Below are positions 15,632 through 52,290 of a DNA stretch of 64,000 bases, piece by piece. This DNA is from Flavobacteriales bacterium. Its GTDB lineage: Bacteria; Bacteroidota; Bacteroidia; UBA10329. The stretch lies in NCBI GenBank assembly GCA_021739625.1, contig JAIPBJ010000001.1:2553-66552 (forward strand), given 5' to 3'. The notes under the pieces were generated by a model. That model was given only the letters and a program-made list of their open reading frames with translations. It was not told the origin of the DNA and made no database searches. The translations under genes and the position numbers were made by a program. Numbering within the stretch: the stretch's first letter is position 1; each line of letters begins with the position of its first letter.

Positions 15632-16843
15632 ATGAACATTCATGAATATCAGGCGAAGGCCATTCTGAGCAGCTTCGGGGTGACCGTGCAACAGGGCAAA
15701 GTGGTTGACAGGGTGGAGGATGCTGTGGCTGCGGCCAAGCAACTGACCGAAGAGACCGGCACAGGCTGGTACGTGGTGAAGGCACAGATCCACGCAGGTG
15801 GACGCGGCAAGGGCATTGTGACCGAGACCGGTTCGCATGGGGTGGTACTGGCCAAGGGCATCGATCATGTGGAGGAGAAGGTGAAGGGCGTTCTGGGCGG
15901 CCATCTGGTCACCAAGCAGACCAGTGCCGGTGGCAAGAAGGTGAACAAGGTGCTCATTGCGCAGGATGTCTATTATCCCGGCCCAAGCGAGACATCGGAG
16001 TTCTATATGAGTGTGCTGCTGAACCGTGCCACGGGCCGCAACATGATCATGTACAGCACCGAGGGCGGCATGGACATCGAGGCGGTCGCAGAGCATACGC
16101 CACATCTCATCTTCACTGAGGAGATCGACCCATCAGTGGGTCTGCAAGCATTTCAGACCAGGAAGATCGCCTTCAACCTCGGTCTTTCGGGTCAGGCGTT
16201 CAAGGAGATGGCCAAATTCGTGGAGGCACTATACCGTGCCTACGTGGAAACCGACAGCAGCATGTTCGAGATCAACCCCGTTCTAAAGACATCTGATGAC
16301 AGGATATTGGCCGTGGACGCCAAAGTTACCCTCGATGGCAACGGGCTTTTCCGCCACAAGGACTATGCAGCACTGCGCGACACGAGCGAAGAGGATCCCA
16401 CAGAAGTGGAGGCCGACAGCCATGGCCTCAACTATGTGAAGCTCGATGGCAACGTGGGCTGCATGGTGAACGGTGCCGGACTGGCAATGGCCACCATGGA
16501 CATGATAAAACTTGCAGGATACGAGCCTGCCAACTTCCTCGATGTGGGCGGCACTGCCGATGCGGCACGTGTGGAGAAGGCGTTCCGCATCATACTCAAG
16601 GACCCGAACGTGAAGGCCATCCTCGTCAACATCTTCGGAGGCATTGTGCGCTGCGACCGTGTGGCGCAGGGCGTTGTGGATGCCTACAAGAGCATTGGCG
16701 AGATCAATGTGCCCATCATCGTGCGCCTGCAGGGCACCAATGCGGTGGAGGCCAAGACCATCATCGACAACAGCGGCCTCAAAGTCCTTTCGGCCATTGC
16801 GCTGAAGGAGGCTGCCCAGAAGGTGCAGGAGGCGTTGGCCTGA
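15632..16843 (+). CDS. sucC: Succinate--CoA ligase beta subunit
   Basis: [64 protein letters not shown]. Confidence 0.97.
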
Positions 16844-16846
16844 ATT

Positions 16847-16874
16847 GTAGAGACGCAGTTGACCGCGTCTCAAC
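16847..16874. repeat. GTAG-type REP palindrome
   Basis: GTAGAGACGC-AGTTGACC-GCGTCTCAAC, 28 bp; related copies at 16947-16974 and 18300-18327. Confidence 0.7.
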
Positions 16875-16878
16875 CGGA

Positions 16879-16923
16879 AAACAGAAACCCCGCTGCGCGA
16901 GATGCGTGGCGGGGTTTTCTGTT
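16879..16923 (+). terminator. Intrinsic terminator after sucC; also the left copy of a 54-bp direct repeat
   Basis: AACAGAAACCCCGCTGCGC...GCGTGGCGGGGTTTTCTGTT; the stem pairs on the + strand using G-U wobbles and is followed by a U-run. Confidence 0.75.
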
Positions 16924-16946
16924 GGTAGAGACGCTGATTCCATTAG

Positions 16947-16974
16947 GTACAGACGTGATTGATCGCGTCTCTAC
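16947..16974. repeat. GTAG-type REP palindrome overlapping the stop codon of the 235-aa gene
   Basis: GTACAGACGTGATTGATCGCGTCTCTAC; a half copy GTAGAGACGC lies at 16925-16934. Confidence 0.7.
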
Positions 16975-17678
16975 CCTGCGACCGGGGCGTTCTTCCCGTC
17001 CATGACCTTGGTCTTGGCCCTATAGCGCTGATACTGTGCCCTCCGTTCGGCATCTTTCGCCCAGACCACACTGGCGCAGATGCTCAGGGTGGACATGCGT
17101 TCCCAGACCATGTTGAACAACGCCACGCGGTCGTGCCGCTTCACCTTTCTGTCAGCCTTGGCGGCCTCCAGCAACTTATTGCGCTCATAGAGCTCGGTGA
17201 CCAGCGCGTCCAACTGGTCTATGGCCTCCTGCCTGTAGCCCTTGTCCAACAGCTGTGGCTTGAAGTCCGCTGACTGCGCGGTGGCATGCGCCAGTTCGAG
17301 CATCTCGGCAAGCAACAGCGTGTTGGGGCGTGCTTCCGGCCATCGGTCCTGCCCGAAGGCGCGCTGCCGCGACAGATCTGTGGGCCATGCCAATGTGGCG
17401 TAGCCCGCCAGGGCCTGCAGTGCGGCATAGCCCCTTTCCATGGCCGCACGGAGGTCGCTACTCAGCACTCCTATATCGAGCAGCAGACTGAGGTCGGAGG
17501 GGAAGGCATCTGCGGCCTTGGTCTCCGCCTCGAAGGCCGAGGCCCATGCGGAGTCCATCCATGGGAATTTCACTGTGAAGTCGGCCAGCTCTGCGTTCAG
17601 GCAGGAGGAGAACACCTCTGCACGCTCCAACATCACATTGTCGGGCATCGTGTAGGCCCTTGCTGCTGTCTGTGCCAT
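16971..17678 (-). CDS. Uncharacterised all-alpha-helical protein (235 aa)
   Basis: Clean ATG ORF with host-like GC; no signal peptide, TM segment or recognisable catalytic motif; basic C-terminus. TAGCTTTG -7 promoter (minus strand) at 17710-17717. Confidence 0.75.
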   Translation of the reverse strand: MAQTAARAYTMPDNVMLERAEVFSSCLNAELADFTVKFPWMDSAWASAFEAETKAADAFPSDLSLLLDIGVLSSDLRAAMERGYAALQALAGYATLAWPTDLSRQRAFGQDRWPEARPNTLLLAEMLELAHATAQSADFKPQLLDKGYRQEAIDQLDALVTELYERNKLLEAAKADRKVKRHDRVALFNMVWERMSTLSICASVVWAKDAERRAQYQRYRAKTKVMDGKNAPVAG

Positions 17679-17704
17679 TGTGGGGTAAGGGAATGCGTCA
17701 ATCT

Positions 17705-18133
17705 GTTCACAAAGCTAATTATTCGTTTCATATAATGCTTGTATGCATTCAAATGTATGATTAAAACATTCATACTCAAGAATGCACTCATCATATACTT
17801 GATCTATTTATTCAAACGAAGAACTAAAATTTTCAGATAAATATGAAAATCATTATGATGATGAATCTGTGAATTCAAATGAATAAATAAATCATTCAAA
17901 TGATGAATGAAACATGTTGAACTTATCATGTGAATGGATAAAAATATCAAATGAATAAACAAAAGAGATATATGAAAAGGTAAATTGATCATCTGAATAA
18001 TTAACAAGTTCATTTGAATAAATGGTATCATCATAGGAATAGATATATTGATCATAAGAATGAATATATTTATCAATAGAAACAATGAAATTTCCATTTG
18101 AATGAAAAGATTAATTATCTTAATGAAAAATTT
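17705..18133. repeat. AT-rich degenerate tandem array, ~20 units with 21-bp period
   Basis: TCA recurs at 17707, 17728, 17749, 17770, 17791, 17812, 17833, 17875, 17896, then after a 9-bp register shift at 17926, 17947, 17989, 18010, 18031, 18052, 18073. GAA is fixed 6 nt after the TCA position in nine consecutive right-hand units. Confidence 0.8.
17710..17717 (-). promoter_or_regulatory. Bacteroidota -7 promoter element (TAGCTTTG) for the 235-aa gene
   Basis: CAAAGCTA on the + strand, 31 bp upstream of ATG 17678, inside the first array unit. Confidence 0.55.
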
Positions 18134-18250
18134 CTTGGAAGTGGGCCAAAGCCTTCGATTCCATTTCCCGAACTCGGCTCTGTTTCGGTAAAACGTGGGA
18201 AACTCGCCTCAAGCTGGTGTATGCACGAAGCGTGAATCACTCCCAAGTGC

Positions 18251-18327
18251 GGAAAAAGAAAGCCCCGCTGTGCGGGATGCGTGGCGGGGGCTGTTGCTGG
18301 TAGAACCGTGATGCATCGCGGCTCTAC
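18251..18327. repeat. Right copy of the 54-bp direct repeat plus a GTAG REP
   Basis: 18251-18304 matches 16876-16929 at 43/54 positions ungapped; overlapped by REP GTAGAACCGTGATGCATCGCGGCTCTAC (18300-18327). Confidence 0.75.
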
Positions 18328-18335
18328 ATAGCGCA

Positions 18336-18968
18336 TCACCCCAACATCACGAACATGCCGGTAAAGACCAGTTCGTCCTCACCAGCGAATTTCACGCGGA
18401 TGTGGTAGAGGAAGGTGCCTGTGCCGATCCACTGCCCGTCATCTCTTCCGTTCCATCCATCCTCCAGACTGTGGGTCTCGAAAAGCAGGGTTCCGTCAAG
18501 GGAGCGCACCTGCCAGTGGAGAAATTCAAGCTCCGGGCCGAGAAGGCCAGGGTTGATCACGGGTTTCCACCCAGTAGAATAGGAATACCAACGGTCAAAG
18601 GCTGTCGGCACCATCACGAATCGATAGCAGGTGTAGAAATGTGCGGTGCGAATGATAGTGTCGCCTTGCCAATGGATCAGGCATCGCACCGAACCGACCC
18701 CTTGCGATGTCGGTAAATGGAGCGCAGTATCAGTTCCCAGCGGCTCCCACTCACCACCACCGACCGGCCTTGACCACTCTACAGAATCGACCCAGAAAGG
18801 GGCTTGCAGCTCGTAATTGTCGAACTCGTTCTCAAGGGCCTGGCATACCTCCACCACTTCGGCATCCAACAGAATGGTCTGCTGTCCGGGAATAGAAGGC
18901 ACCGATGGCGGCTCCTTGAGGCAGCCCGTCATTGCAAAACAGAACATGGTGACCAGAAGTAGCCTCAT
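18336..18968 (-). CDS. Lipoprotein with T9SS type B (gliding-motility-associated, CHU_C-like) C-terminal domain
   Basis: Lipobox AMTGC; C-terminal 'VPTAF...WKP...G.LLFET....GWNG...GTFLYHI...FTGMFVML'. Confidence 0.7.
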   Translation of the reverse strand: MRLLLVTMFCFAMTGCLKEPPSVPSIPGQQTILLDAEVVEVCQALENEFDNYELQAPFWVDSVEWSRPVGGGEWEPLGTDTALHLPTSQGVGSVRCLIHWQGDTIIRTAHFYTCYRFVMVPTAFDRWYSYSTGWKPVINPGLLGPELEFLHWQVRSLDGTLLFETHSLEDGWNGRDDGQWIGTGTFLYHIRVKFAGEDELVFTGMFVMLG

Positions 18969-29948: not shown

Positions 29949-31043
29949 TTAATCATGGGAACCTTTGAAAATACCGTCTTCAATGTCTTCCTTTTTGCCG
30001 GTTGCGCCTCTTAGATTTGCATGTTTGAAATCTGCTCCTGTCCAAATCGCTCCTGTGAGGTCTGTATCCATCAGGTATGCACTTCTGAGATTTGCTTCCG
30101 TGAAATTGGCTCCTTCGACATTAGCATGGCACATGTTGGAATTTTGGAGGTTTGCTCTTTGAAATTTTGCTCTGCGGAGGTCTGCTCTGTGAAGGTCTGC
30201 TCTCTCGAGATCTGCTCCTTGAAAGGTTGCTCCTTGGAGGTTTGCTCCTTCGAAGCTTACATATCTTAGGTTTGCCCCTTCAAGGTTTTGTCTTTCGATG
30301 TTTACTCGTTTGAGAGTTGCTCCATTGAGGTGTGCCTCTCTTAGGTCTGTACCTTTAAGGTTTGCCATATTGAGGTTCGCACACACGAAGCTTCCGCCTT
30401 CGAGGTTTGCGCCTTCGAGGTTTGCACCTTCGAGGTTTGCACCTTCGAGGTTTGCATTTTTGAGATTTGCGCCTTTTAGGTTTGCATTTTTGAGATTCGC
30501 TCCTTTGAGGTTCGCATCCCTCAGATTTGCATTTTCGAGATTTGCATCCCTGAGATTTGCATTTTCAAGATTTGTCCCTTGAAGGGTTGCCCGTTCAAGA
30601 TTTGCATTTCTGAGAGTTGATGCCTTGAGTTCTGCCCGACTTAGGTCAACGCTTTTGAGAAGTGTCCCGTTCAGCATTGCACTATTGAGATTTGTGTCCC
30701 TGAGAATTGACCGTTCAAGATTTGCCTCGTTCAATTCAGCAAATTCAAGATTCGCTCCCCCAAGGTCAGCATCACAAAGCCTCGCCCCACATAAATCAGC
30801 TCGATATAGGTTTGCTTTTGAGAGATCAACTCGGTTGAGCCATGCTTTAGTGAGAGTTGCAAAACTGAGGTCTGTACCAATGAGCTTGGCTCCCCTGAGA
30901 TCTGCCTCTATAAGGTTTGCGGAACCTAAATTTAGACCAGAAAGATTTGCTTGTTGTAAGTCTTTTTTCATCAAATCCACCTTTGCTTTCCCGCCAGTGC
31001 TATTTATTAATTCAACTACCAGCTCCCTTGTTATGCTCTCCAT
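29949..31043 (-). CDS. Pentapeptide repeat protein
   Basis: Almost entirely A(N/D)Lxx repeats; distinctly AT-richer than flanking genes. Confidence 0.9.
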   Translation of the reverse strand: MESITRELVVELINSTGGKAKVDLMKKDLQQANLSGLNLGSANLIEADLRGAKLIGTDLSFATLTKAWLNRVDLSKANLYRADLCGARLCDADLGGANLEFAELNEANLERSILRDTNLNSAMLNGTLLKSVDLSRAELKASTLRNANLERATLQGTNLENANLRDANLENANLRDANLKGANLKNANLKGANLKNANLEGANLEGANLEGANLEGGSFVCANLNMANLKGTDLREAHLNGATLKRVNIERQNLEGANLRYVSFEGANLQGATFQGADLERADLHRADLRRAKFQRANLQNSNMCHANVEGANFTEANLRSAYLMDTDLTGAIWTGADFKHANLRGATGKKEDIEDGIFKGSHD

Positions 31044-51839: not shown

Positions 51840-52290
51840 CTGTCGGAAGGAAGGCTGACACAGCGGAGCAACTGCTTTGCCCCGATGGGAGAACTCCGAT
51901 CACAGCGGAGCAACTGCTTTGCCCCGATGGGAGAACTCCGATCACAACGGAGCAACTGCTTTGCCACGATGGGAGAACTCCGATCACAGCGGAGCAACTG
52001 CTTTGCCCCGATGGGAGAACTCCGATCACAGCGGAGCAACTGCTTTGCCCCGATGGGAGAACTCCGATCACAACGGAGCAACTGCTTTGCCCCGATGGGA
52101 GAACTCCGATCACAACGGAGCAACTGCTTTGCCCCGATGGGAGAACTCCGATCGCAACGGAGCAACTGTTTTGCCCCGATGGGAGAACTCCGAACGCAAC
52201 GGAGCAACTGCTTTGCCCCGATGGGAGAACTCCGATCACAACGGAGCAACTGCTTTGCCCTGTCGGAGGCCCGTCCGACACAGCGGAGCA
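51840..52290. repeat. Tandem array of ten 42-bp units with diverged terminal blocks
   Basis: Unit CARCGGAGCAACTGCTTTGCCCCGATGGGAGAACTCCGATCA x9 (51861-52238), a tenth unit with a different second half, and partial units at both ends. Confidence 0.95.

Follow-up and report, generated by a model that had tools for sequence, protein, structure and literature searches.

Among the closest described arrays of short repeats, iteron arrays accompany a Rep initiator, as in F RepE, R6K Pi and pPS10, and LytTR operators, such as those of AgrA and ComE, follow the rule of a 9-bp repeat plus a 12-bp spacer. At the ptx promoter (Pptx), six BvgA dimers are seated 22 bp apart, the last of them abutting the −35 element, and cooperative occupancy of many weak sites by BvgA~P leads to activation or repression (PMC7250471). 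In Porphyromonas gingivalis, BrickBuilt, a transposable element of the miniature inverted-repeat type (MITE), carries one 23-nt unit at 19 loci, together with a leader, a tail and inverted ends (PMC4596501). The TAACTGA heptamer repeats, a kind of short tandemly repeated repetitive (STRR) sequence, form short single-heptamer runs just before start codons in Beggiatoaceae, cyanobacteria and a few Bacteroidetes (PMC4679880). Here, we analysed a unit of one gene and one repeat array located between sucC and a type IX secretion system (T9SS)-type gene in a stretch of 64,000 nt (hereafter, the window) from a Flavobacteriales bacterium (GenBank assembly GCA_021739625.1, contig JAIPBJ010000001.1, positions 2,553 to 66,552). 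The gene encodes a helical protein of 235 amino acids (aa), and its upstream region is occupied by an array with a period of 21 bp. Judging from the sequence, we read this array, with slightly better than even confidence, as a non-coding, helically phased multi-site docking platform that would control the promoter of the helical-protein gene. The gene and its upstream region are composed of the following features.

16971..17678, minus strand: gene for the 235-aa all-α protein, which belongs to a large Bacteroidota family that is uncharacterised
17690..18130: whole 21-bp-phased array, about 20 units, 24% GC
17710..17717, minus strand: TAGCTTTG, candidate −7 box, 32–39 nt upstream of the ATG of the 235-aa gene
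17721..17909, minus strand: promoter-proximal block, nine units of 21 bp, core TCATTTGAAt in gene orientation, at −57, −78 ... −225 from the ATG
17920..18108, minus strand: distal block, nine units of 21 bp, core aTTCAnATGAt in gene orientation, at −256 ... −424

The array, about 440 bp in length, was low in GC (21–28% locally and 24% overall), compared with 55% for the genome. Autocorrelation of 17690–18130 gave peaks at lags 21, 42, 63, 84, 105 and 126. For the first three of these lags, z was 9.0, 7.8 and 9.5, respectively, while the maximum z among 300 shuffles was 4.5. All copy spacings were 21, 42 or 63 bp, with the exception of one of 30 bp. Tandem Repeats Finder reported only 2.2 copies, because the units of the array are degenerate. 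The initial annotation, made by a model from the sequence letters, had described about 20 degenerate units of 21 bp and low GC directly upstream of the gene, and both the phasing (z about 9) and the base composition bear out this description.

Each 21-bp unit consists of a conserved 9–10-bp core (aTTCAaATGAt) and 11–12 bp of free fill, and about 9–10 positions per unit are informative, with almost no information in the rest. The two blocks carry the same core in opposite orientations and are joined by a step of 30–31 bp. The core is a defined pseudo-palindromic word. Nine matches with at most one mismatch were clustered here, while no other locus in the 3.7-Mb genome contained more than three. 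Directly downstream of the last core, at −39 to −32 from the ATG, TAGCTTTG fits TAnnTTTG, the −7 box of Bacteroidota promoters; at the homologous loci, TAnnTT(T/C)G-like words were found by eye about 40–50 nt before the ATG. The array, lying upstream of and overlapping the promoter region, looks like cis-regulatory DNA and not like the RNA array of a clustered regularly interspaced short palindromic repeat (CRISPR) or tandem interspaced guide RNA (TIGR) system. Array length variants were not seen in contig-level DNA data, one set of which came from the same study and was identical where covered, and one of which may be the source of the window.

The array was then compared with that of L012, a same-genus orthologue with 68% protein identity at another chromosomal locus. 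The L012 array contains the same core in ten distal copies from −467 to −278, followed by a 31-bp switch and ten proximal copies from −247 to −58. The last core is thus located at −57 in the window and at −58 in L012, and the proximal register relative to the ATG therefore agrees within 1 bp. When units were paired by register, cross-species identity of the core was 0.68 for the proximal and 0.74 for the distal block, whereas that of the fill was 0.35 and 0.43, respectively, values estimated to be near chance for the AT-rich composition. The array appears to be under selection, not simply decaying.

The same comparison bears on the reading of the array as a coding sequence for a heptad-repeat peptide, 21 bp being equal to seven codons. 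An open reading frame (ORF) of 97 aa (17804–18097, minus strand) is open across both blocks, because the stop-free core is read in one frame, and each of the spacings, the 30-bp switch included, is a multiple of three. In L012, however, no frame is open throughout the array (ORF pieces of 74, 35, 45 and 66 aa), and the 97-aa ORF has no Pfam match. The coding reading, to which we assign next to no probability, was rejected since no ORF is conserved in L012.

To what extent the arrangement recurs was analysed for 20 public loci, consisting of 13 genome-collection loci (metagenome-assembled genomes of Flavobacteriales, Crocinitomicaceae or Bacteroidia; ~10 kb each) and seven metagenome loci. A 21-bp-period array was present upstream of the homologue in all 20, although the scores of three are weak and a contig end truncates one. 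For 12 of the 13 genome-collection loci, the strongest 21-bp-period segment of the whole locus fell within about 400 bp upstream of the homologue, and the 13th (L007) includes only 206 bp of upstream sequence, starting inside a 21-bp array of 3.3 copies. The periodicity scores were 0.10 to 0.67 for the genome-collection loci and 0.17–0.66 for the metagenome loci (7/7 with an upstream array). The array of every locus has its own unit sequence, with a GC content of 0.27 to 0.63. These counts are not independent, because the genomes are related to one another. Within the genome itself, an iterated profile detected 14 family members on chromosomal contigs, 13 of which had enough upstream sequence to be assessed, and eight of these 13 scored above 0.2, compared with 3.4% of the 2846 called genes in the same genome. 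Adjacent 21-bp-period arrays with a sequence differing at each locus are what the initial annotation had expected of a recurrent system, and this expectation was supported. Our own expectation that most arrays would finish on an inverted core copy was not confirmed by a strict 8-mer test of 26 loci, in which four showed opposed blocks, three a single proximal inverted copy and 19 neither.

In related genomes, the gene is accompanied by the array at other loci. Neither sucC nor the T9SS-type gene of the window was found beside the homologue in any of the 13 genome-collection loci, and L012 and L001 have a common upstream neighbour, a membrane-protein gene, that differs from the window's. This co-occurrence at different loci also agrees with a protein-plus-array system of the CRISPR or TIGR kind, in which the array would be transcribed and processed to ~21-nt RNAs, or else be generated or edited by the protein; likewise, the opposed blocks gave an RNA fold z of −3.05. 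We consider such a system very improbable. The fill does not resemble spacers, as ten nearly identical units occur in some relatives (L006), and the promoter-like −7 word is downstream of the array. The adjacent proteins showed no nuclease, Nop, Cas or defence-family match in Pfam and PADLOC, and a search of 16700–18500 against Rfam gave two sub-threshold chance matches only. A replication origin or partition site (iterons, parC-like) is suggested by unit length, phasing and copy number, all of which are like those of iterons or parC. Its probability is, in our view, minimal, given that a single genome has 14 paralogous genes on its chromosomal contigs, most of them accompanied by arrays, and given the neighbours sucC and a T9SS-type gene, with no adjacent Rep, ParA or ParM gene.

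Tandem repeats are abundant throughout the genome. A total of 352 tandem-repeat loci were identified, 244 of them with a period divisible by 7 (25 loci with a period of 7 bp, 62 of 14 bp, 82 of 21 bp, 36 of 42 bp and 21 of 63 bp). Many contigs break inside these period-7n arrays. The excess of 7n periods (244/352), the distribution over all intergenic contexts roughly in genome proportion and the many contigs that end in arrays would all be expected of a neutral minisatellite, arising by lineage-specific slippage with a 7-nt quantum, of which the array in the window would be an old, decayed and functionless copy. Such a minisatellite does not account for an upstream array in 20/20 public loci (the three weak loci and the contig-cut one included) versus 3.4% of genes, or for cores that are kept while the fill is not and an ATG register that is kept between genomes at 68% protein identity. 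Because a neutral array would decay evenly, the contrast between core and fill counts against this explanation, which we regard as distinctly improbable.

The main rival to the docking platform is reader-free structural DNA, in which in-phase bends would make the DNA curved or wrapped and thereby tune or insulate the promoter, and the periodicity would be selected rather than the word. Several observations are in line with this rival: the units are unrelated between paralogues while the period stays at 21 bp, the long arrays of the genome would need about 85 different readers (LytTR genes number only six), and the adjacent protein is without DNA-binding features. On the other hand, the 25 period-7 and 62 period-14 arrays do not correspond to whole helical turns, and a pseudo-palindromic core in two orientations with a conserved 30–31-bp switch fits orientation-specific recognition. 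Taken together, we judge structural DNA to be unlikely.

The docking platform is the reading we prefer because of the two-turn period, the combination of a core with free fill, the oriented blocks, the private word, the fixed distance to the ATG and the position of the last core beside the −7-like word. The unit would then represent a single gene together with a control region of its own. A sequence-specific DNA-binding protein would be seated in many copies on one face of the helix, 21 bp being two turns, the bound proteins would assemble cooperatively towards or over the promoter, and the occupancy of the platform would set the transcription of the helical-protein gene. Iterons bound by Rep and the BvgA dimers at Pptx are known examples of this mode of action. 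The candidate reader may be the product of the helical-protein gene itself (autoregulation) or a factor encoded at another site, for example a member of the family of ~82-aa basic, winged-helix-like proteins described below. Autoregulation is favoured by the fact that the helical gene alone co-occurs with the array across these loci and that the word has no other genomic target; the acidic protein and its lack of a DNA-binding fold speak against it.

The 235-aa protein gave no match in Pfam (E up to 1), PHROG, NCBIfam or PADLOC. Its AlphaFold2 model, based on a 14-row alignment, had a mean predicted local distance difference test (pLDDT) score of 89.9 and was all helix, with no β strand; the model is elongated, with helices of 36 and 56 residues. 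Foldseek against the PDB found nothing below E 0.2 with this model, and the VIA wide structure search gave a best Z of 10.8 (LemA, 2etd), followed by generic helical bundles, matches that appear to be within noise for helical proteins. Sequence-profile searches of the PDB found nothing credible for the protein, and the ESM Atlas returned only unnamed Bacteroidota clusters and a weak DUF6261 lead that Pfam did not confirm. PQLLE_fam of NCBIfam was rejected, as a single paralogue matched at 26.8 bits against a cut-off of 80, and a literature search for ‘PQLLE’ found no paper with this term. These results agree with the earlier description of an all-helical protein without a recognisable motif, and the modelling and fold search proposed at that time gave only generic helical bundles. 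The family includes 47 close homologues and 2075 representative clusters at E up to 1e-3, and in many members the protein is extended by a Pro/Gly linker and, at the C terminus, a CarboxypepD_reg-like domain. The gene in the window is complete, because N-termini align across the family.

The helical proteins themselves may read the arrays, a view that we regard as doubtful. The elongated bundle, with its 56-residue helix of about 80 Å by estimate, would lie along one 21-bp unit of about 71 Å, and copies would polymerise head to tail into a private protein–DNA filament. If true, this would imply thousands of paralogue-specific protein/array pairs with a new DNA-binding fold and evolvable specificity, and a self-contained, mobile module that could be called a ‘gene with its own chromatin’. 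The 235-aa protein is acidic, with an isoelectric point (pI) of 5.1, its relatives range from pI 5 to 9, and neither Foldseek nor VIA detected a recognisable DNA-binding fold in its model; the proposal of the initial annotation that the protein binds, processes or generates the array is not supported.

A second array-bearing family was identified, consisting of basic proteins of ~82 aa (pI 9.5–10.3) with the conserved pattern ...EVG...W...GW[VF]I.R and 11 members in the genome. All ten members that could be assessed have an upstream 21-bp array of 8–12 units with its own sequence. The sites of this family are as follows.

Genome G000: contigs C146, C77, C26, C69, C79, C46, C164, C95, C148 and C161
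Public loci: L003–L006, L008 and L009

In six public loci, the ~82-aa gene and the helical gene are arranged divergently on either side of the array, and the two are in tandem at C26 and C77. The AlphaFold2 model of the ~82-aa protein (pLDDT 84.4) shows an α-β-α-β-β layout, which is compatible with a winged helix. Its best structural match, RepE (2z9o), is a lead only, because the Z of 5.8 is below the noise level. Complex prediction of the L004 helical protein with its divergent small neighbour gave a score of 0.00 and no verdict.

A number of results weigh against the docking platform. The period-7n arrays are found in every intergenic orientation, including 17 between convergent genes (157 of the 244 are intergenic, by rough gene calls), and with 244 arrays in all contexts, many may have no reader. 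A phased array is also upstream of 97 genes, some of them housekeeping genes; the arrays are therefore not exclusive to the helical-protein family. Among the paralogues, five of 13 lack a clear array: no phased array was detected at C12, C87 and C32, and C77 (0.18) and C178 (0.12) are borderline. The AT-rich close relatives score weakest (L001, 0.10; L002, 0.12; L012, 0.16), where the 95th percentile for the genes of the genome is 0.12, measured over a segment slightly different from that used for these three loci. The adjacent protein is acidic (pI 5.1) and all-helical, with generic helical-bundle matches only, and neither a gene of the ~82-aa family nor a remnant of one was found at the window locus. 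Finally, selection for periodicity as such, with frozen anchors, could be another source of the conserved cores.

The unit is flanked by hairpins and by repetitive extragenic palindromic (REP)-like elements, as follows.

15632–16843, plus strand: sucC, left neighbour of the unit
16847..16875: REP-like hairpin 1, GTAGAGACGC...GCGTCTC, directly 3′ of the sucC stop, fold z −3.9
16875..16929: hairpin A, the left-hand of the two 55-nt direct repeats, with a G+C-rich stem and runs of T on each strand
16947..16975: REP-like hairpin 2, covering the last codons of the 235-aa gene, with its stop codon TAG inside
18134..18247: single-copy segment of 114 nt that separates the array from hairpin B, with normal GC and a closing 10-bp stem
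18250..18304: hairpin B, the right-hand of the two 55-nt direct repeats, resembling an intrinsic terminator on the minus strand
18300..18328: REP-like hairpin 3, fold z −4.25
18336–18968, minus strand: T9SS-type gene, weak CHU_C match, right neighbour of the unit

The presence of a unit between sucC and the T9SS-type gene, with a hairpin direct repeat and a REP at both ends, was confirmed: the two copies of the 55-nt hairpin repeat (16875–16929 and 18250–18304) are 80% identical, and three REP-like hairpins of the form GTAG...CTAC start at 16847, 16947 and 18300. Hairpin A folds at −32.1 kcal/mol (z −6.3 versus shuffles). Both 55-nt hairpins are intrinsic-terminator-like on the minus strand, one after the 235-aa gene and the other after the T9SS-type gene; hairpin A looks like a terminator for both sucC (plus strand) and the 235-aa gene (minus strand), and hairpin B like one for the T9SS-type gene at 18336–18968 (minus strand). 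Across the whole genome, REP-like sites under a strict pattern number 12, and the 55-nt hairpin family has three copies at up to six mismatches, two of which bracket the unit. Bracketing by direct repeats is therefore specific to the unit and fits insertion into a variable slot.

The slot after sucC is variable within the genus. In G005 (same genus), it contains one REP, one hairpin and a ParE-toxin gene paired with a small upstream gene (L029, C72, 1615–2183). In G004 (same genus), other small ORFs lie between duplicated ~110-nt segments composed of the sucC 3′ end, REP and hairpin (L030, C1, 800–1552). The initial annotation had proposed a search of relatives for an empty site with one repeat copy, and its interpretation is supported by the slot in G005, which has a single hairpin copy and other cargo, the ParE pair. 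We infer that the unit was inserted into this variable slot, with a duplicated terminator-hairpin/REP module on either side. No link to this locus was found for the two Y1/RAYT-like (REP-associated tyrosine transposase) genes located elsewhere in the genome. At C96 of G000 (793–1137 and 1826–2127), a further stretch that is AT-rich and 21-bp-phased was seen ~700 bp away from a Y1 (RAYT-like) transposase gene.

The segment at 18134–18247 is single-copy in the genome and gave no match in 30 relatives. For the plus strand, its fold z was +0.41; for the minus strand, z was −2.54 and 3 of 200 shuffles folded as well, so that excess structure is weak or absent and only marginal on the minus strand. 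The segment described earlier as a nested inverted repeat exists, with its closing stem, but it is not significantly structured compared with shuffles. One frame of 18132–18158 (plus strand) spells FLEVGQSLR, similar to the EVGQ motif of the small ~82-aa family, a likeness that is probably a coincidence because the profile match is at chance level (E 0.83).

Other tandem repeats were observed in the window. At 51859–52260, 9.6 copies of a 42-bp unit with 96% match are located between two plus-strand genes. GGCAAAGCAGTTGCTCCGTTG-type units related to this array recur at at least four other contigs and at contig ends; they therefore belong to an array family spread over many loci, in contrast to the array of the 235-aa gene, which is private to it. 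At 30143–30561, two tandem repeats with a 30-bp period (3.6 and 5.5 copies) lie inside a called gene.

These findings suggest that a large Bacteroidota family of no known function, with 2075 representative clusters, is tied to an array of fixed geometry and free sequence, and likewise the ~82-aa family. If such arrays are docking platforms, a major phylum would have a regulatory design that is very common and yet undescribed, and the arrays would offer a direct way of identifying the readers. The copy in the window may be well suited to experiments, as it is old and degenerate, so that the conserved cores would mark functional positions, and it has opposed blocks and a word unique in the genome.

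With respect to known systems, the window contains both elements of the design considered here, namely, a gene of an all-α family of about 220 aa and ~10 or more locus-specific units within ~500 bp upstream. A literature search on 21-bp arrays, minisatellites and iteron-like repeats in Bacteroidetes and Flavobacteria, covering the articles themselves, found only BrickBuilt and the TAACTGA repeats, and within the same scope no published account was found of a gene family that carries private upstream arrays of 21-bp period. A CRISPR array has near-identical repeats of ~23–50 bp with unique spacers, whereas the unit here is 21 bp with a degenerate 9–10-bp core, and relatives have nearly identical whole units without spacers; the cas families gave no match in the adjacent proteins (Pfam, PADLOC), to which this search was confined within the window. 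TIGR-Tas depends on an adjacent Tas protein with a Nop domain, whereas Pfam gave no family for the 235-aa protein at E up to 1. The ParR/parC centromere includes a partition NTPase and a small adaptor gene, whereas the neighbours here are sucC and the T9SS-type gene.

The resemblance to iteron/Rep modules is closer. As in these, about 10–20 direct repeats of ~21–22 bp, within or near the 17–22 bp of phased iterons, lie in helical phase beside the accompanied gene, inverted copies are near the promoter as in rep operators, and the sequence is private to each locus. The differences are that many modules are present per chromosome, versus one per replicon, that there is no origin function, and that the adjacent protein appears to be an acidic, elongated helical bundle rather than a winged-helix Rep; none of the fold matches listed for the all-α 235-aa model is a Rep, and absence from this list does not exclude one. 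The information profile of the unit, a 9-bp core with a 12-bp spacer, gives the 21-bp period of LytTR operators. LytTR sites come in pairs, in contrast with the tens found here, and no LytTR gene is adjacent. As the genome has only six LytTR genes, LytTR was rejected as a general reader.

The array shares with the BvgA~P sites of the ptx promoter the two-turn site spacing, the single DNA face and the position of the last site by the core promoter, but Pptx has six sites for a NarL-type regulator of many promoters, compared with ~20 sites in two opposed blocks with a private word (PMC7250471). BrickBuilt is likewise an intergenic tandem array of ~22-bp units in Bacteroidota, for which promoter activity has been reported; in contrast to the multi-locus element of that account, the core cluster described here is found at one locus only and is tied to a gene family (PMC4596501). 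The TAACTGA repeats resemble the genome-wide repeat excess on a 7-nt quantum and differ from the 21-bp units here, which are locus-specific and upstream of the promoter (PMC4679880). The geometry of the array therefore matches that of iterons, LytTR operators and BvgA-type promoters, and membership in each of these classes appears to fail on the protein side or on copy number.

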